A stretch of 64,000 nt of DNA, from NCBI GenBank assembly GCA_902500205.1, contig GCA_902500205.1_4868.1; one strand, 5' to 3'. A program made the translations under genes and the position numbers. The notes beneath the pieces are model-generated. The model saw only the letters and a list, made by a program, of their open reading frames with translations, made no database searches and was not told the origin of the DNA. The DNA is from Escherichia coli. GTDB taxonomy: Bacteria > Pseudomonadota > Gammaproteobacteria > Enterobacterales > Enterobacteriaceae. Positions 17,780 to 43,782 of the stretch are shown here, piece by piece. How positions within the stretch are numbered: position 1 is the first letter of the stretch; each line of letters begins with the position of its first letter.

Positions 17780-19251
17780 TCAACTTATATTCACTTAATG
17801 CTGTCACCAACGCAATGAAACTGGCGAAACAACACCAGGTTCGTTTAGAAGCTGACGTTGACAGTCCTGTTGGTCTACTGACAAAAGCGACTACGCAGCA
17901 GAGCGTTTTCGATACACAGATAACTGACGAAGAGTTCTTCCAGTCTCTGCCGGATATCACTGCACTGAAAACGCCGCAATCTGGCACGGGCGAAGCGTCT
18001 GTAATCGCGGACACGGCAGCGGGTCCAGAAACGCTGAACGTCGAAGACCACGAACCGACACTGTTCGAACTGAAACGTATGGCTATCCAACGTTGTCAGG
18101 GTATGCTTGACTTTGCCCGTAACGTTATTCAGCCGTTTGTTCAACTGGTTATCCAAAACAACCAGGGTATTGAAAACCAGGCAGTTAGCGAAGAGTGGGC
18201 ACTCGTACCTGCAGGTATGGACCCGGCGCTGAACTCCCCGGTGGTACAGGCGTTAATTGATTCGGTAGAAAACCCGCTGGGTAATGGTACTACGCATCCC
18301 GCAGTTAAAGCCAACGTCCCTGCCGATATCGAACTGCCGGAAACCGGCAGCAAAGCATACGACGATCTGGTTAAAGAACTGTTGAATGCGCTGGGTTGGA
18401 ATATCAACGAAGCCGTTCGCAACATGCTCGAAGGGAACATGCTCTCTCCGGTAAGCGACCAGGCACCACACAACCTGAAACGCAACATTCTGTTTATGCT
18501 GCTTTCTGGCTACTACCTGGAAATGCCGTGGAAAGACTCTGGTCTGAATAGCGGGCAGTGGAAAGCACAGATGCTGCCATTACATTACAGCTATATCGGC
18601 TGGGTTTACGCCTACACCCAGAACATCGTTACCCGCATCAAGACCGGTAACATTGTCTTCGGATACGACAACGTTGAGAAGAAAGTGTATATCTGTCAGG
18701 AAGTGATGGACGACTATCTGGAAAAAGGTGGTAGCGTTGAAGCGTTACTGGGCGCTATCTACCAGCTGGACGAAGGTGACACCAATGTCTCCACGCGTGT
18801 AGCTTCACTGTTGGAAAAACAGAAAGACTACATCGCTGCCTGGGGCCACCGTTCTGCGATTCAGCGTGCTAAGCTCGACAGCAGTTGGGTAACACGCAAT
18901 CGCCAGTCACTGAAACAAGCGTTTAACGTGGCCATCGATGCAACCGATCCTGAACTGTTCTGGCGTGGACAGGACGGTCAGGTAGCAACGCCGGAGTTCG
19001 TTAAGAAATCAACGGCAAGCTTCATCGATTCGTTCTTCACAACCGACACCACAGACATCACTGAGTTCGTTATCAAAGTCTCCGCGACTGAGGTCTTCGG
19101 TGAATACGAACTGTCCAAGCTGATGCTGGATATTCATCGTGGTATGATTGCTAACCGTCAACCTGACGAGGTGGCAACCGACTGGATGATTAACTACGTC
19201 CTGGATTGGATTTGTGGCGGTGTGGTTATTTCTGTACCGAGCAAAGTTTAA
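17776..19251 (+). CDS. hypothetical protein (491 aa)
   Basis: ATG overlapping upstream stop; long ORF. Confidence 0.75.
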   Translation: MINLYSLNAVTNAMKLAKQHQVRLEADVDSPVGLLTKATTQQSVFDTQITDEEFFQSLPDITALKTPQSGTGEASVIADTAAGPETLNVEDHEPTLFELKRMAIQRCQGMLDFARNVIQPFVQLVIQNNQGIENQAVSEEWALVPAGMDPALNSPVVQALIDSVENPLGNGTTHPAVKANVPADIELPETGSKAYDDLVKELLNALGWNINEAVRNMLEGNMLSPVSDQAPHNLKRNILFMLLSGYYLEMPWKDSGLNSGQWKAQMLPLHYSYIGWVYAYTQNIVTRIKTGNIVFGYDNVEKKVYICQEVMDDYLEKGGSVEALLGAIYQLDEGDTNVSTRVASLLEKQKDYIAAWGHRSAIQRAKLDSSWVTRNRQSLKQAFNVAIDATDPELFWRGQDGQVATPEFVKKSTASFIDSFFTTDTTDITEFVIKVSATEVFGEYELSKLMLDIHRGMIANRQPDEVATDWMINYVLDWICGGVVISVPSKV

Positions 19252-19266
19252 TAAAGAGAGGTGGTC

Positions 19267-20858: not shown

Positions 20859-21488
20859 ATGGCAGAACATATCGACCCGTCATTAGAGCGGTGGTGTGAA
20901 CGCCAGATGCCGCACGTCGCCAAAAAGTTGACGTTACGTAAACTGACTGAACAGCCGCTGCATTTAAGCAAGTGTAAGATACCGACGTTTTCGCCGCGTA
21001 TCCCACTTTCGTGCGCGCCAGATGAAGACAAGACCGTGCCCAGGATTTGCTGCTCGGTAGATTTAGAGCGAGCGATTAAGGGTGCACGTCACAACTTCTC
21101 TGCAATCGAAATACCCACACGATTGTATCTTTACGGTTTTGATGAACGTGATGTAGCGCAGCCTTCGGTCAACCTGACACAGGAACCGAATCGGGCGGGT
21201 GAAGTATGGATTGTACCACACCGCATGTCGAACTGGGATATCAAACCGATTTACCTGGGCGAGATGCGGTTGTCAGAACTTCGCAACGGTGGCCATGTTT
21301 TTGTCTATCACTTAAGTTTCGGACAAGATGTGCGCCTGTCTACCAGTCAACTGTTGAAAGCCGGCGAATTTTATCGACTGATTATCAGCGTCAACTGGGA
21401 GCGCGGTGAAGTTAAGGTCTCGGAGGCGGTCGCCACTGCGCGTACTGCTTTTGATAACGCACTGAACGAATACGTCGTTTCACCGTAG
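20859..21488 (+). CDS. hypothetical protein (209 aa)
   Basis: ATG with AAGGAG 10 nt upstream. Confidence 0.7.
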   Translation: MAEHIDPSLERWCERQMPHVAKKLTLRKLTEQPLHLSKCKIPTFSPRIPLSCAPDEDKTVPRICCSVDLERAIKGARHNFSAIEIPTRLYLYGFDERDVAQPSVNLTQEPNRAGEVWIVPHRMSNWDIKPIYLGEMRLSELRNGGHVFVYHLSFGQDVRLSTSQLLKAGEFYRLIISVNWERGEVKVSEAVATARTAFDNALNEYVVSP

Positions 21489-21543
21489 TGCCTAGTTCGT
21501 GGTCTGCAAATCACAACTAAAAACCACTACAGTAGGGGGACGC

Positions 21544-21843
21544 ATGAAGGTCGTTAACATCGCAATACCTCCGACCCTTCGTTGTTTGACGCCGGAAGAA
21601 CTGAAAGCGTTAGCGATCTACGCTATCCAAGGAAAGGCTGGTAAAGAAGTGCTTGCCGAAATCTTATCGGAACGTTTTGATACAAAACGCAAGGTTAATA
21701 ACATCATCTCCGGAATCGCGTCGCTAGATATCATGGCACTCTATTGCGACATTAAAGAGGCTGGAGTGACAATCGACTATCGCCGTACTTACTTTCTACT
21801 CACTGAGCCGTATCGTTCGAATATGGCAATAAAGCAGATGTAA
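21544..21843 (+). CDS. hypothetical protein (about 99 aa)
   Basis: ORF 21499..21843; internal ATG at 21544 has AGGGGGA upstream. Confidence 0.5.
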   Translation: MKVVNIAIPPTLRCLTPEELKALAIYAIQGKAGKEVLAEILSERFDTKRKVNNIISGIASLDIMALYCDIKEAGVTIDYRRTYFLLTEPYRSNMAIKQM

Positions 21844-21896
21844 TTTTTTACATGACGTTGGTTTCATGTGTTGGGGAACAAAATAAGGACAAGAAG

Positions 21897-22445
21897 ATGT
21901 TTTATCTGGATAGCGATGGCGTTTTTGCACGCTGGCGTAAATACGTTTTATCCACGCATTTTCCCGGAATGACGATTAAAGAGTTTAACGCACTACCTGA
22001 ACTCCGTCGCCGTAGTTTGGTTCGTTCGATGTATCAGAACGATCCTGACTTGTTTTACAAACTCGAACCAATTGAGGGTGTAGAGCGAATCCTGGAAACG
22101 GTAGATAGACTTTGCGACAGTTGGGCAATACTCACCTCTGGATCAGAAGATCACTACGACCACCAATTGGTTGTGGATTCAAAACAACGGTGGTTCATGA
22201 AGCACTTTGGGGTACCAGCTGACAAAGTCATCGTCACCGAAAGTTCAGGGCAGAAGAAAGCTTACGCCTCGCGAGGTAATTTGCTTGTCGACGATTATGG
22301 TCGTAACTGTCGAGAATGGATTTTGCAAGGTGGCGCGGCAATATGGTCGCGAACTGAAGAACCGAACATTGATGGCATTTGCCTCCAGTGTGAAGCGTTC
22401 TACAATGACCCGATTACTCACTCGGGGACACTACTGCAAGTCTAA
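21897..22445 (+). CDS. HAD-superfamily hydrolase, likely 5-prime(3-prime)-deoxyribonucleotidase-like
   Basis: ORF 21852..22445; ATG at 21897 has AAGGA upstream; N-terminal FYLDSDGV fits HAD motif I (DxDGV). Confidence 0.55.
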   Translation: MFYLDSDGVFARWRKYVLSTHFPGMTIKEFNALPELRRRSLVRSMYQNDPDLFYKLEPIEGVERILETVDRLCDSWAILTSGSEDHYDHQLVVDSKQRWFMKHFGVPADKVIVTESSGQKKAYASRGNLLVDDYGRNCREWILQGGAAIWSRTEEPNIDGICLQCEAFYNDPITHSGTLLQV

Positions 22446-22518
22446 GCTCCACTAGGCTCATCCTATCTTCGGATACGGGTGAGTCTTTTTATTTTATTAA
22501 TTGCATTCAAAAAGAACT

Positions 22519-22541
22519 GAGATATATATTACTTAGGTGAG
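22519..22541 (+). promoter_or_regulatory. recurrent promoter-like motif GAGATATATATTACTTAGGTGAG
   Basis: Member of a 6-copy motif family GATATTA(T/C)CT..GTGA upstream of plus-strand genes. Confidence 0.4.
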
Positions 22542-22591
22542 CGTTACACGTTAACGCTTTAATCGACTATTACCCAGAAGGAGTATTTACA

Positions 22592-22990
22592 ATGACTAAC
22601 CAACTACGCCAAGACCCGTTTGTTGCCATGATGCTTTGTGCTAAAGCCGAGAGCAACGAAGCCGATTTAATTCGTCTGTTGACTGATGACGAATACCTTA
22701 TCTCCGAGCGCGATAAACGTTTAAAAGAACTCTACAAGCCAGAAACCGGTGAATCGCTCGGCAATCAAGACGCCTGGAAGTTTCTTATTCTTGTTGCTGA
22801 TGAAACGTGGCGAGCAAAAAATCCCATCGTCTGTGATATTACAGACCTACCGTACAAATACGGCGGACTCATCACTAGCGACCAGCACCTTAAAGCGTTC
22901 TTTGTTGGTGAAGCAATGCAAGAACTGCAAGATGTTCTTATTACAGCAACGGACACTTTGAAACGTTTGCGCGCCGAGCAGCTAATCTGA
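22592..22990 (+). CDS. hypothetical protein (132 aa)
   Basis: ATG preceded by conserved leader TTAATCGACTATTACCCAGAAGGAGTATTTACA. Confidence 0.65.
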   Translation: MTNQLRQDPFVAMMLCAKAESNEADLIRLLTDDEYLISERDKRLKELYKPETGESLGNQDAWKFLILVADETWRAKNPIVCDITDLPYKYGGLITSDQHLKAFFVGEAMQELQDVLITATDTLKRLRAEQLI

Positions 22991-39287: not shown

Positions 39288-39292
39288 GTCAC

Positions 39293-39345
39293 TAGGCGTA
39301 CTCTCTTCGGGGAGTACGCCAATCTTATTTTTTTTATTTTTTTGG
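39293..39345 (+). terminator. intrinsic terminator
   Basis: Hairpin GGCGTACTC-TCTTCGG-GGAGTACGCC followed by TTATTTTTTTTATTTTTTTGG. Confidence 0.7.
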
Positions 39346-39770
39346 TTACTTTTTAACCAACCGGTTAAAGGGGTCTGGGAAGCATCAGAAAACGATTAGG
39401 TGGTATCGACGTAGGGTAGCTCGTTTTTGGCAGTTTATCGTTTTCTAGGGTCTGTTACGTGCGTTTTAGAGGGGGTTATGTATCGAGACAGAGAATTTAT
39501 TTTTGTCGGGGCGAGGAAATTCAGGGAATGGGGATTCAGGATTGTATGTTTTTTAACCAGTTATTAAAAACGCTCTAGAAAGCGCTAGAACGAGATTTAA
39601 CTCAGACCCAGTACACTTGGGTTCCCTATACCGGAAAATCGCGCCAGCGGGCCGCTGAGAGCGCGAGAGAGCCATTCCCGTTTCGGTTCCGAGGTGACGG
39701 TCGCGGCCGGCGACGACGATCACACGTTGGGTAGCACTTCGTGCCATGTCTGGGTGAAAACTGGATCGTT

Positions 39771-39796
39771 CTGTAACCGACACACACTGTCGGTTA
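39771..39796. other. perfect 10-bp stem-loop GTAACCGACA-CACAC-TGTCGGTTAC in ORF-free region
   Basis: Read directly; no T-run downstream. Confidence 0.4.
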
Positions 39797-39905
39797 CTTA
39801 CGAGTTCTTTGGGTTGTTTAATTCACTCTAAAATCCCCCTTAGGGGATAATTTAATCTAATTCTCAAAATTTCTTTTTAAAACAATCACTTAGATTGTTT
39901 TTTAG

Positions 39906-40150
39906 ATTGATCCTGTGGATCGGGTCGAAGACCCTTTCCTTATACGCGTGCGCGTGCGCGCACCCGTATCCTCCAGGATCTTTTAAAATATATAATAATA
40001 TTAAATATAATAATACCTTTAGGTATTATATTTAATTATTATAATTATTTATATAAATAAATATATTAATATATTAAGATCTTAAAACGCGTGCGGGCGC
40101 GCGCGTGATCCTTATTAAGAGATCGTGATCGGACGGAAGACCGAGATCGG
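39906..40150. other. origin-like dyad element: AT-rich core flanked by alternating-GC boxes and 8 GATC sites
   Basis: ACGCGTGCGCGTGCGCGCAC (39944-39963) and CGCGTGCGGGCGCGCGCGTG (40088-40107) flank a 96-bp core of about 95% AT with dyad centre near 40019; 8 GATC in 240 bp. Confidence 0.45.
39981..40076. repeat. AT-rich low-complexity core (ATA/TAA repeats) with central inverted repeat
   Basis: Arms ATAATACC / GGTATTAT around TTTA centre; bounded by GATCTTTTAAAA and AAGATCTTAAAA. Confidence 0.6.
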
Positions 40151-40280
40151 GTACCCTGTGTATTTTTTACGTGGTTTCCCTATCGTGTGTTCAGACCACC
40201 ACTCGATGTCCAAAAACCCATAGCTTCGGTGGTCGCCTCCCTGGTCGGTAGACTCTGACAAGTCGACCCACACCACCAAC

Positions 40281-40303
40281 CCGTCCGGGGACGGATTTTT
40301 ATT
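40281..40303 (+). terminator. terminator-like hairpin plus T-run inside ORF-free region
   Basis: CCGTCCGGGGACGG followed by ATTTTTATT. Confidence 0.35.
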
Positions 40304-40358
40304 CCAACGACAAGCTCCACGAAAATCCCCGCAGAGGGACTCACTGCTGTGTGACTCA

Positions 40359-40398
40359 CCGGCTCCTGGACGCCTACGCCTCGAGCCGGTAATTTTTT
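40359..40398 (+). terminator. terminator-like hairpin plus T-run inside ORF-free region
   Basis: CCGGCTC...GAGCCGG stem followed by TAATTTTTT. Confidence 0.4.
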
Positions 40399-40489
40399 GA
40401 TTACGTGAGTTTGTTGTTATATGCGAATAGCGATTGACCGCGCCAATGGTCCAATCACTTTTTAAACCCTGCACGCTAGGGCTCCAAGT

Positions 40490-40519
40490 CCTGGGATTGA
40501 TACCCAGGACGCTTTTTCG
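40490..40519 (+). terminator. terminator-like hairpin plus T-run inside ORF-free region
   Basis: TCCTGGG-ATTGATA-CCCAGGA followed by CGCTTTTTCG. Confidence 0.35.
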
Positions 40520-41056
40520 AAAATACCTGCCGTGGTGTCTTCGACAAAGCGCAATCTAACACTGCGTGATTTATTATGTTCTGGAAAACTTTCGCCGTGG
40601 AACAGAACCGGTGAGCGTCGGCGGGGATTCCGACAATCACCACCCATTCAGGTACTCGGTAGATAACCGACCTGCCGACGGTGCTACGTCGGGCGTAGTT
40701 CGGTTTGCGAGAGTGTCGAGAAAGTCGACTGCGCACCCATGACAAAATCCGAGTTGACCGTGGCAGCGCCAGAGGACTGGGCAGCGGAGAGACGTCGTTG
40801 AACTTACCTCCGATAGTTATCGCTGATTCCGCTCTGGCGTCGGGCCAAAACTGATTCGAATTCGGCGTTGCGTCGAAAAGGGGTCTGCGTGTAGAACCGC
40901 AGACTTGGGGGATAACTCCAAAGTGGGGTGATCGGATCTTGACGGCTCGGAATAGACGAGAGGGGTGGGTACTCCCGTTGAGAAACGACGGTACCTGGCT
41001 GATTAAAATTTACAGATTCTGCGTGAGGTATGATAAACCAAACGGAGAATTAAACC

Positions 41057-41632
41057 ATGAACTTGTATCGCGTCGGGTTTTACCGAAACGAGATGCCTGA
41101 ATCGGTTTTGGTTGTCTTAGCCGAAAACGAGGAGCAGGCCAAATCCTTCTGGCCGGTTAGCGCAGAGCGTCCAGCGGTTGCGTGCTGCTACGACGGCGCT
41201 GTGTCTACCCCGATGGTTACGCCTGGGGTGGTTCTGAAGCAAGGCCGATGGGAAGATTACTCCCATCCCGGTTTGGAGTTTGTTTCCGAACCTGCCAGAC
41301 ATTCCTGGGAATTTCCCTCAGGCAACACCGAGACGTATTTCGGATTTCAGGTTAAACAACCTTCGACGCTCAAACTGTACCTGGTGTACAGCGACGCCGC
41401 TACCGAAGACTACGTCGATTCCGGAATCATCGTCGGGGCAACAACCCCTGCTGCGGCATTCGCACATTGGGACGGTGATAAACCCGGAATCGTTTCGGTC
41501 TGTGAGCTACCACTTGAAGCCGGTTTGGTTACGAACATCAAGTGTGAGCAAGGCCAGGAGCTGACTTGGATGCGCCAGGATTACCTGACGGAAACGACAT
41601 TCGAATACACACCGAGGAGGGTGACCCAATGA
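41057..41632 (+). CDS. hypothetical protein (191 aa) built from two tandem copies of a roughly 80-aa domain; translationally coupled to HslV-like gene
   Basis: ATG with GGAG upstream; stop TGA overlaps next start (ATGA); N-half and C-half share LY..(D/E)..IV.A.T..AA pattern. Confidence 0.65.
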   Translation: MNLYRVGFYRNEMPESVLVVLAENEEQAKSFWPVSAERPAVACCYDGAVSTPMVTPGVVLKQGRWEDYSHPGLEFVSEPARHSWEFPSGNTETYFGFQVKQPSTLKLYLVYSDAATEDYVDSGIIVGATTPAAAFAHWDGDKPGIVSVCELPLEAGLVTNIKCEQGQELTWMRQDYLTETTFEYTPRRVTQ

Positions 41633-42120
41633 CGACGATAGCGTTCGACGGAAAAGTCTTAGCTGCTGACGGTCAGCTGACCCGCGGGTCGAATATCTGC
41701 AACCTGAACACCCAGAAGTTATTCATCTGCCCTTCTGACGAGGAATGGTGGATTACTGGTGAACGGATTGTGGCGTTCGGAGTAAGCGGTGACATCACAG
41801 GACAGTTGGCCCTGCTGGAAACGGTCCGCTTGAGACCCGGCTACAAGGGATTAACACAAAGCTCGCAGTTACCTACGAAGATGGATTTTACTTTCCTGAT
41901 GCTTTTGGCCTCAGGAAAAGCGATAGTCGGCGGAAAACGTGAAGACGACGTGACGTTGTGGTGGAGTGAAGCCACACCACCTCTGGCAACCGGAAGCGGT
42001 TACGAGTATGCGTTGGGTGCGATGAAGATGGGCGCGAATGCGGTTCGTGCTGTTGAGATTGCGTCCGAATGCGATATCTACACCGGTGGTGAGATTAGCA
42101 CTTACGAATTACGGAGGTGA
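41629..42120 (+). CDS. HslV/proteasome beta-like Ntn-hydrolase threonine peptidase (163 aa)
   Basis: Begins MTTIAFDG (Thr directly after initiator Met); ADGQLTRG, ATGSGYEYALGAM and AVEIASECDIYTGG align with HslV MTTIVSV, GDGQATLG, AIGSGGPYAQAA, ALDIAGDICIYTNH; GAGGAGG RBS 8 nt upstream. Confidence 0.8.
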   Translation: MTTIAFDGKVLAADGQLTRGSNICNLNTQKLFICPSDEEWWITGERIVAFGVSGDITGQLALLETVRLRPGYKGLTQSSQLPTKMDFTFLMLLASGKAIVGGKREDDVTLWWSEATPPLATGSGYEYALGAMKMGANAVRAVEIASECDIYTGGEISTYELRR

Positions 42121-42212
42121 ATCATGCGGGAGTCAGAAGCACGCAAGCTTGACCCCATCAATCGCCTGCGATAACGGGGTAGCGCATCCGTATAAACACG
42201 TTCAAGAATTCT

Positions 42213-42288
42213 AGGAAAGTGACGCAATTGGTAGCGTACCGGTCTCCAAAACCGGCTGTTTAGAGTTCGAGTCTCTACTTTCCTGCCA
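42213..42288 (+). tRNA. tRNA-Trp (anticodon CCA) with encoded 3-prime CCA
   Basis: Hand-folded cloverleaf: 7-bp acceptor AGGAAAG/CTTTCCT, D-arm ACGC/GCGT, anticodon stem CCGGT/ACCGG with loop CTCCAAA, T-arm TAGAG-TTCGAGT-CTCTA, discriminator G then CCA. Confidence 0.85.
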
Positions 42289-42354
42289 CATTTAGCCAAC
42301 AAGGCCATGATTCAAAGCAGAATGACACCGAATGTCTAACTGCGGAGAATAATC

Positions 42355-42597
42355 ATGAACTTGTATTTGCTAGAACGAACTGACGATATCGGGTATGATG
42401 AATTTGATTCCATAATCGTGGCGGCTCCTACGGAGCAAGCCGCGTGTGCAATTCCTCCCGACCGTGGTCATTGGATGGACTGCCGCTGGTTACCGAAAGA
42501 GCGCTGGGATGAAGGGCTTACCCTGACCGTTACCCTTATCGGCACTACGCACTATCCTGCTGGGACCGTCGTTCATGAATCGTTCAATGCTGGCTAA
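42355..42597 (+). CDS. small protein (80 aa), single-copy paralog of the repeat domain in the 191-aa protein
   Basis: Same leader and start (GGAGAAT..ATGAACTTGTAT) as gene at 41057; N-terminus MNLYLLERTDD...IIVAAPTEQAA parallels MNLYRVGFYRNE...VLAENEEQAK. Confidence 0.55.
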   Translation: MNLYLLERTDDIGYDEFDSIIVAAPTEQAACAIPPDRGHWMDCRWLPKERWDEGLTLTVTLIGTTHYPAGTVVHESFNAG

Positions 42598-42600
42598 ACA

Positions 42601-43630
42601 GTGGGCTTCGGCCCACTAACCCTATTCGAGCCATGATACTTACTCAGATTGTGCGGGTTGATGTCCCGCATGAGCCGGTAGCAGCTCAGACCTACGGTAA
42701 ACCGATAAATCCGTAGCAGCCAGGTACACAAAGCACCAGGTCGCTTGTACAGGATGCTGGGTATCTGACCGGTCATAACCTCATTCGATACGAGACACGT
42801 TTATGCATGAAATATTCCAGTACATCAGGATGTTGATTTCAAACGTCCGGTTCTGGGTATTCAATCATGTTTGGTTTACAGGCGATGGGTTTTCCCGCAA
42901 GGGCCCCACTTACAGACTGGCGTCTCCACGACAACCGTCCCTAGGGGACAGGCAAGCACCGGCCCATTAAGCCGCCATGCTACGCCTGTAAATCCACAAT
43001 CTGATAACCGAATGGGATTGAGTTCCCAGTGTTAGGGTGACTGTGTGTCACCGTAGGCGCGGTACCTCATACGGCCGGTACGCCACGAATGTACGTGATA
43101 GCAGGTGGTGCTTGGAGACGCTAAGACCTGACCTTACGGCCAGGCTCAGAAGAAGAAGTTCATCACCCGCATTCAGAAATGAATTTAGGTTAATTATTGG
43201 AAGTGGTGAAATCGTTTACGTGATAACTTAGTAGTATGCAACGAACAATACCAGAGTGACTTTACGAGGTTACTGTGGTATATGTCGGTGCGCCGGGCAA
43301 CGTGTTGCCGCAGATAAGCCCGAGGGAGCTGAATGCACTAACACACGCCGGGATGCACCGGCACCTTACAATGGGAGCGCTGTCACCATCAGTGATGACA
43401 GGAGTGAAGGATTCGTACCTCACTCGACTGGGCGGAAGCCTGGGCGTTCCCCCATCTTCACATCATGGCCGGCTTGCCGGTTCAACGTAGACGTCTCGTA
43501 AGAGATTTCCAGTCAGGCAACTGATAACACACCTAAGCGTCGACCTTGGACGTATGGTGTCTGGTTAAGTCCCCCGAAACGGAAACCAGTAGGGGTGTGG
43601 TACGTTGAGTGTAACTATCATGATGCCATG
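42601..43630 (+). ncRNA. candidate large structured noncoding RNA region (family unknown)
   Basis: About 1 kb with no convincing ORF; many local hairpins (GTGGGC-TTCG-GCCCAC, GTCCC-TAG-GGGAC, GGTGAC-TGTGT-GTCACC) and a long-range complementary pair TTACAGGCG / CGCCTGTAA about 100 nt apart. Confidence 0.3.
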
Positions 43631-43636
43631 AACAAT

Positions 43637-43706
43637 GGCTTTGTAGCTCAGGTAGGTAGAGCAGCCTCTTCGAGGAAGGTCGCCGGTTCGAGACCGGTCA
43701 AAGCAA
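43637..43706 (+). tRNA. degenerate tRNA-like element (possible pseudo-tRNA)
   Basis: Canonical D-arm (TAGCTCAGGTAGGTAGAGCA) and T-arm (CCGG-TTCGAGA-CCGG) but mismatched anticodon stem, 1-nt variable loop and G1-A72 mismatch. Confidence 0.3.
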
Positions 43707-43707
43707 G

Positions 43708-43782
43708 AGCAGTGAAGTTAGAGGAATTAACACCCGACTCATAATCGGATATTTCGCGGGTTCGAATCCCTGCCACTTGCTC
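43708..43782 (+). tRNA. degenerate tRNA-like element with CAT anticodon loop (Met/Ile-like), two 1-nt bulges
   Basis: Anticodon arm CCGA-CTCATAA-TCGG and T-loop TTCGAAT present; acceptor and T stems each need a bulged T; no clean CCA. Confidence 0.3.

Follow-up and report, generated by a model that had tools for sequence, protein, structure and literature searches.

We have analysed a 64-kb stretch of DNA (64,000 nt, contig GCA_902500205.1_4868.1 of an Escherichia coli assembly; below, the window), and in it the gene for a 163-aa homologue of the proteasome/HslV peptidases. The window is sequence of a Seoulvirus (SPN3US-like, ~240 kb) jumbo phage; the region shares 97.7% identity with Escherichia phage vB_EcoM_EC001 and 94–96% with many Salmonella phages. 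The interval 41057–42597 contains four features, all on the + strand, namely a 191-aa open reading frame (ORF), the 163-aa ORF, a tRNA-Trp gene and an 80-aa ORF, and no terminator-like site was found between them. The 163-aa ORF begins MTTIAFDG, its ATG and the stop codon of the 191-aa ORF share the sequence ATGA, and a Shine-Dalgarno sequence, GAGGAGG, lies 8 nt ahead of the ATG at 41629. The ORF pair, its overlap and the start MTTIAFDG agree with a preliminary description of the locus, which had been made from the sequence by eye. A TTG at 41566 was considered as the start of a longer form of the 163-aa ORF and ruled out: all 52 aligned homologues begin M-T-T, and the ATG at 41629 is therefore the real start.

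Homology, fold and family placement of the 163-aa protein

Searches with the 163-aa sequence alone were uninformative, as the Pfam Proteasome model gave 12.9 bits (E 0.085, cut-off 22.4 bits) and phmmer against the PDB gave nothing significant (E 0.17), and a family profile was therefore needed. The protein matches PHROG 1040 ('peptidase HslV family') with an E value of 1.5e-37, and a profile of 52 family sequences aligns over its full length with the proteasome beta5 subunit (3.4e-13) and HslV (1.5e-11) in the PDB. In hhalign the family pairs with E. coli HslV, whose sequence we verified against PDB entries 1e94 and 5ji3, at a probability of 97.2% (E 2.8e-11). The AlphaFold model of the 163-aa protein has a pLDDT of 93.5, and when it was compared with the PDB by Foldseek the top 50 matches were all proteasome beta or HslV chains, with E values down to 9e-7 and a best TM score of 0.70, to the HslV chains 1g3i_G and 1m4y_A. 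The model is an alpha-beta-beta-alpha sandwich with three of the four flanking helices, H2 being absent.

Residues M1, T2, T3, D14, K30, G54, G122 and G124 are invariant across the 52 family members. In the alignments T2 takes the place of Thr1, D14 and K30 that of D17 and K33 of HslV, and D14, K30 and G54 that of D17, K33 and G47 of beta5, while G122-S123-G124 aligns to the GSG of beta5 (Ser129) and D149-I-Y-T152-G-G to D166-x-x-S169-G-G. The gene is under extreme purifying selection, with a ratio of non-synonymous to synonymous rates (dN/dS) of 0.01 against phage SPLA5c (19 synonymous changes and 1 non-synonymous). On these sequence comparisons and the predicted fold, we conclude that the 163-aa protein is a homologue of the N-terminal-threonine peptidases of the proteasome/HslV superfamily (N-terminal nucleophile (Ntn) hydrolases, MEROPS T1), with the predicted catalytic residues conserved. 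The preliminary description had read the protein in this way, and its reading is borne out by PHROG, the family profile, hhalign and AlphaFold/Foldseek alike: a profile match to the HslV families exists, the predicted structure has the HslV/proteasome fold, and the Thr, Lys and Gly of the active site that it had singled out (T2, K30 and G54; Thr1 and Lys33 in proteasome numbering) are invariant. The HslV-like blocks that it had recognised are also real (MTTIA, AADGQ, K30, SG54D, GSG and DIYTGG).

It had furthermore proposed that threonine becomes the first residue of the mature protein. A threonine next to the initiator methionine allows the latter to be removed (the methionine aminopeptidase rule), the solved chains of E. 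coli HslV begin at Thr even though the gene starts MTTI, and M1-T2-T3 is invariant in the 52 homologues; for the phage protein the removal itself is a prediction. By analogy with E. coli HslV, the methionine aminopeptidase of the host would take off Met1 and expose Thr2 as the N-terminal nucleophile, with no propeptide to cleave. Asp14 and Lys30 would complete the catalytic triad and Gly54 would form the oxyanion hole, and Ser123, Asp149 and Thr152 would correspond to Ser129, Asp166 and Ser169, which have a supporting role in proteasome beta subunits.

The protein is not HslV proper, because its scores against the HslV equivalog models are far below the cut-offs (16.3 bits against 157.75 for TIGR03692 and 16.1 against 137 for NF003964), its first hairpin is 4 residues shorter, and it has neither a propeptide nor helix H2. 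The region of H2 in HslV (residues ~67–95) aligns to gaps, the model of the phage protein being coil without helix at 67–86, and the deleted part includes Ala79 and Lys80, which form part of the pocket for the HslU tail; nor does an hslU gene adjoin the phage gene. With bacterial HslV (ClpQ) it nevertheless shares the MTTI start, which exposes Thr1 once Met is removed, the aligned D17, K33, GSG and C-terminal D-x-x-T, and the fold. With the beta subunits of the 20S proteasome, among which beta5 is the best PDB match in sequence, it shares equivalents of Thr1, Asp17, Lys33, Gly47, Ser129, Asp166 and Ser169, but it is ~40 residues shorter, has no propeptide and no alpha-subunit partner, and lacks both H2 and the C-terminal S12/H5 (PMC8665760).

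These traits are those of PPH, a family of small proteasome homologues of phages and hosts. PPH were described as proteins of ~140 aa from Caudovirales and prophages, with no propeptide and no helix H2, H2 being absent from PPH/RPC (PMC8665760). The window protein has the same compact size, M-T-T start without a propeptide, Thr/Asp/Lys/Gly set and loss of H2, its model stops after the last core strand, and it likewise belongs to a tailed phage of Proteobacteria. It differs in its length of 163 aa, through a 10-residue insertion (residues 35–44) common to some homologues, the homologues as a whole being 138–194 aa long, and in that an extra 191-aa gene is inserted at the PPH start codon in this phage lineage. 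By its sequence the 163-aa gene is a member of the PPH family, whose published representative is WP_042125023.1, an assignment made from the published traits and the match to PHROG 1040.

Using tblastn we found PPH homologues in 289 phage records, which include 40-kb Jerseyviruses and several jumbo-phage genera and name Salmonella, Erwinia, Klebsiella, Pseudomonas, Escherichia, Aeromonas, Vibrio and Rhizobium as hosts. The metagenomic contexts of PPH are phage-like, and at least 40 viral structure clusters in BFVD have the PPH fold. The novelty implied by the preliminary description does not stand, as the orthologue in SPN3US (gp1, with 5 differences in 163 residues) is annotated 'peptidase HslV family' in GenBank, the gene belongs to an existing PHROG and the family has been published as PPH (PMC8665760); HslV genes without HslU had also been remarked in a related jumbo phage (PMC7823757). 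Gene and family are thus already known, and the window gene is the copy of SPN3US-type jumbo phages. On gp1 of SPN3US itself we found nothing in the literature. The finding is real but largely ordinary, since the gene was already annotated and classified and the gene put forward as its partner is a lineage-specific insertion. PPH has been spoken of as the first member of the proteasome family that is truly viral. As a separate observation, Aeromonas phage 4L372XY has two adjacent proteasome-like genes (record L006, 2432–3828) encoding 183 and 275 aa, which match the PPH profile with E values of 1.9e-5 and 8.8e-38 and could be a hetero-oligomeric pair.

The overlapping gene and other neighbours of PPH

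Table 1. Features in and directly upstream of the PPH interval, in window coordinates.
Feature	Coordinates	Strand	Remarks
Structured RNA-like motif, 148 nt	40857..41004	+	Immediately 5' of the operon; candidate for a 5' leader or a small RNA; no Rfam family
191-aa ORF	41057..41632	+	Function-unassigned, lineage-specific insertion; overlaps the PPH start at ATGA
163-aa PPH-type N-terminal-threonine peptidase homologue, SPN3US gp1 orthologue	41629..42120	+	PHROG 1040, profile, AlphaFold
tRNA-Trp (CCA)	42213..42288	+	ARAGORN; Rfam 63.6 bits; annotations of relatives
80-aa PHROG 5444 protein (MNLYL...SFNAG family)	42355..42597	+	PHROG 5444, E 5.9e-36

The preliminary description had taken the 191-aa gene for a coupled partner of the peptidase. 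The two genes do overlap, but the 191-aa gene is absent from SPN3US, where positions 1–1189 correspond to window 39873–41060 and positions 1186–2930 to window 41629–43374. Relative to SPN3US it is a precise 568-bp insertion or deletion with ATGA at both edges, and the ribosome-binding site and ATG at which the 191-aa gene begins in the window are the ones that PPH uses in SPN3US. The 191-aa protein was found in 27 records only, all closely related. No other homologue was found among 5.8 billion clustered proteins, and a HMMER scan run exhaustively over 1.84 billion representatives added only two matches, both to long, highly repetitive proteins through many short stretches, which we judged spurious. 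Searches of PHROG, Pfam, NCBIfam and PADLOC with the protein or its halves gave nothing credible, and its AlphaFold model, made from an alignment of 3 near-identical sequences, is unusable (pLDDT 39). It is a real, if fast-evolving, coding gene, because its dN/dS against SPLA5c is 0.28.

In nine other contexts the genes 5′ of PPH are unrelated to the 191-aa gene and to each other; the upstream genes compared include those of Klebsiella, Erwinia and Salmonella phages and of four metagenomic contigs. An all-against-all BLAST of ten contexts revealed no recurring neighbour family of PPH outside the jumbo-phage clade. We conclude that the 191-aa gene is a lineage-specific insertion and not a conserved partner, because SPN3US lacks it, only close relatives carry it, and the upstream genes elsewhere are unrelated. 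It would have come in recently as a cassette, placed precisely at the start codon of PPH, and have taken over the original ribosome-binding site of PPH, so that PPH would now be translated by coupling from the new GAGGAGG site.

The alternative is an obligate two-component protease made up of PPH and the coupled 191-aa protein, with the latter serving as its gate, an adaptor or an activator. In favour of it, the overlap of 4 nt (ATGA) together with the strong Shine-Dalgarno sequence implies that the two are co-translated, purifying selection acts on the 191-aa gene, and the gene before PPH overlaps its start, likewise by 4 nt, in five further contexts. Four-base overlaps are, however, generic in phage operons, where they reflect ordinary packing, and the overlapping upstream genes are unrelated to one another. 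Given also a nearly identical PPH in a phage that lacks the 191-aa gene, and 191-aa homologues confined to close relatives, we regard the chances of a two-component protease as very slim.

Each half of the 191-aa protein opens with a segment of the form M/L-N/K-L-Y...V-V-x-A...E-x-A, and the first 12 nt of its gene are identical to those of the 80-aa gene. The likeness to the N-terminus of the 80-aa family is stronger in the N-terminal half (residues 1–36; hhalign P 6.6e-5, probability 64%) than in the C-terminal half (hhalign P 0.017; BLAST E 0.003 with Machina gp4 and 0.029 with the 80-aa protein of the window). The two halves show no significant similarity to each other (E 1.3; hhalign 0.26), and the PHROG 5444 model matches neither. 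The label 'repeat-domain', which the protein had been given, is thus left with a marginal likeness between its halves, above all the N-terminal one, and the 80-aa family, since the halves are not alike and PHROG 5444 is silent. It is possible that the 191-aa gene is a diverged duplicate of the 80-aa gene.

The 80-aa protein belongs to PHROG 5444. An alignment of 53 diverse phage and metagenome members (alignment A2) shows a conserved MNLYL N-terminus and an invariant extreme C-terminus, S-F-x-A-G. The arrangement of the 80-aa gene, PPH and tRNA-Trp is kept in Seoulvirus and Machinavirus and only in this jumbo-phage clade. We considered PHROG 5444 as a dedicated partner of PPH and rejected it, as three unrelated metagenomic phage contigs carry PHROG 5444 without PPH within 8 kb; most PPH phages, conversely, have no PHROG 5444 (289 records with PPH against 70 with PHROG 5444). 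The same evidence bears on the proposal that PPH is not degradative at all and functions as a ligase or transpeptidase, or else as an inactive decoy. The superfamily includes the ligase connectase (PMC8665760), and the invariant C-terminal SFNAG of the adjoining family could in principle be a recognition motif. Against the proposal stand the separate occurrence of the two families just described and, as regards a decoy, the invariance of the full catalytic set of the beta-subunit type, and we see only a slim chance that PPH is anything other than degradative. PADLOC gave no link of PPH to defence systems.

Beyond the 80-aa gene, a tRNA-like sequence on the + strand at 43637–43706 scores 36.4 bits with the Rfam tRNA model, above the gathering score, and was missed by ARAGORN; its anticodon loop is shortened in the alignment, which makes a degenerate tRNA probable. 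Right after it, at 43709–43781 and also on the + strand, comes a second, weaker match of this kind (23.8 bits).

Unfoldases and the mode of action of PPH

HslU docks on HslV by a hydrophobic C-terminal tail, (F/Y)-(I/L)-(L/I) (PMC6429459 Table 1), which is contacted by Ala79 and Lys80 of helix H2 of HslV, and HslV alone is a weak peptidase (PMC6429459). The preliminary description had stated that no HslU is encoded near the 163-aa gene. This holds for the 64-kb window, in which tblastn with two phage HslU-like proteins found no HslU-like ATPase, and is incomplete for the phages as such, since some relatives carry a full-length HslU-like ATPase ~100 kb from PPH, or a remnant of one.

Full-length genes are present in phage 1252, SPAsTU, pEa_SNUABM_29 and the Machinaviruses. 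The ATPase of phage 1252 (record L011, 4001–5761) has 586 aa, and its best NCBIfam match is hslU (E 8e-62, below the cut-off). In EC001 (record L010, 5001–5228), Lh1B and JN03, a 1948-bp deletion has left a 75-aa in-frame fusion, annotated 'putative heat shock protein', of 68 N-terminal ATPase residues and the tail of the next gene. SPN3US, too, lacks the ATPase. A more distant HslU-like homologue, gp116 of phage RAY, has been reported in the phage nucleus (bioRxiv 10.1101/2023.02.24.529968); we considered RAY gp116 as a nuclear HslV-like protease and rejected this, as it is a 569-aa HslU-like ATPase.

The ATPases raise the prospect of a pairing in which the phage's own HslU-like AAA+ protein has PPH as its peptidase. 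In favour of it speak the full-length genes, their kinship to hslU and the presence of the RAY homologue in the nucleus. We give this little chance. EC001, Lh1B and JN03 keep an intact PPH beside the 75-aa remnant, that of EC001 differing by 1 residue from PPH of the window; the phage HslU-like proteins end in ...HAWTEKA or ...GQNLRK, without the hydrophobic docking tail; and PPH is widespread among 40-kb phages, in which an ATPase of this kind is absent. In Machinaviruses, moreover, the ATPase lies near another HslV-like gene. Since PPH of EC001 is intact beside the remnant, the docking tail is missing and the Machinavirus ATPase is near that other gene, we infer from the sequences that PPH does not depend on the phage ATPase.

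This other gene of the Machinaviruses is a second, divergent HslV-like gene (ORF116, start MTTF...), five genes upstream of the HslU-like ATPase (ORF121). In pSal-SNUABM-04 the ORF116 region is at 18181–19253 and the ATPase at 21145–22878 of record L008, and the end of ORF116 overlaps a 182-aa gene by 4 nt. No orthologue of ORF116 was found in the window or in Seoulviruses. ORF116 and ORF121 may constitute a phage-encoded HslVU-like module.

A further alternative is that PPH replaces, or competes with, host HslV on host HslU and so redirects or blocks ATP-dependent proteolysis. PPH phages infect mainly Proteobacteria, hosts that have HslU (PMC8665760), strong selection maintains PPH even where a genome has lost its own HslU-like gene, and the pocket positions Phe54 and Phe57 of HslV, which hhalign pairs with Leu60 and Leu63 of PPH, remain hydrophobic. 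On the other hand, helix H2 with the HslU-tail contacts Ala79 and Lys80 is deleted, which would require a non-canonical interface (PMC6429459), and the scores of 16 bits are to be compared with HslV equivalog cut-offs of 137–158. Canonical docking of HslU appears doubtful because PPH lacks the helix that in HslV forms part of the pocket for the HslU tail, and we hold action through host HslU to be unlikely.

We favor a reading in which PPH is active as an N-terminal-threonine peptidase and needs no dedicated partner encoded alongside it. We consider this likely, because the catalytic set is complete and invariant, the fold is predicted with confidence, purifying selection is extreme, and neighbouring genes are freely gained and lost. 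Activity, oligomeric state and independence from an unfoldase are what we infer from these comparisons. PPH would be an accessory, horizontally mobile gene whose product, by analogy with HslV, probably forms HslV-like rings, and which most likely acts stand-alone on peptides or unfolded proteins during infection, or else by way of a non-canonical activator.

Several points weigh against this. A stand-alone protease would be unusual for a superfamily in which HslV by itself is only a weak peptidase (PMC6429459), and Leu60 and Leu63 may leave some binding of the HslU tail possible. Phage 1252 carries PPH, the 191-aa gene and the full-length HslU-like ATPase together, and the phage of the window may, like phage 1252, have a full ATPase at a locus outside the window. 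In the literature searched there is, furthermore, no experimental work on any PPH, be it biochemistry, structure or phenotype.

We tentatively take one step further, to a proposition that we think somewhat unlikely as a whole, namely that the protease itself is the selected unit and that PPH either works without a dedicated unfoldase or captures a host AAA+ ring by a non-canonical surface that lacks H2. It is suggested by genomes of the EC001 type, which have lost the HslU-like ATPase while PPH is nearly frozen. If true, the 191-aa insert and the 148-nt RNA described below would be lineage-specific regulators of PPH expression. Natural variants that differ in the presence of the 191-aa insert and of the HslU-like ATPase provide a comparison set for a minimal phage proteasome-like protease, for which SPN3US is a genetically tractable model.

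The non-coding region upstream of the operon

The 1.77 kb upstream of the 191-aa gene (39288–41056) contain no credible ORF and are unannotated in relatives. The stretch is 97.8% identical to SPLA5c, which makes it more conserved than the synonymous sites of the flanking genes (dS ~0.2), and ~95% of it can be aligned, at 67–71%, with SPAsTU and pEa_SNUABM_29, distant Seoulviruses in which the PPH protein is only 38% identical. The stretch may correspond to a large non-coding RNA, or to DNA that acts in cis.

The 148-nt motif listed in Table 1 lies within this stretch. Its core is 77–81% identical across Seoulvirus, Machinavirus, Erskinevirus and Wellingtonvirus, and it is also found in IMG/VR contigs. 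RNAalifold predicts 39 pairs, of which 14–15 have compensatory changes, and the structure includes a covarying hairpin capped by a GNRA loop; 94.1% of cells pair, against 38–45% when the partners are slid. A covariance model of the motif finds one copy per genome, at 19 loci with 86–158 bits. PPH follows the motif in 6 of the 9 loci that reach far enough downstream, and does so directly in three of them (L034, L039 and L042). Neither the motif nor the region around it matches an Rfam family. We suggest that the motif may be a leader or a small RNA of the PPH operon.

Farther upstream, at 39937–40104, ~95 bp of pure A+T (39980–40075), rich in palindromes, are found between two GC-alternating ACGCGTGCGCGTGCGCGC-like hairpins, and the segment has a fold z-score of -6.9. 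The GenBank records of SPN3US, EC001, Proteus phage 7 and others begin within or beside it, and it could be an origin, a packaging site or a mere assembly breakpoint.

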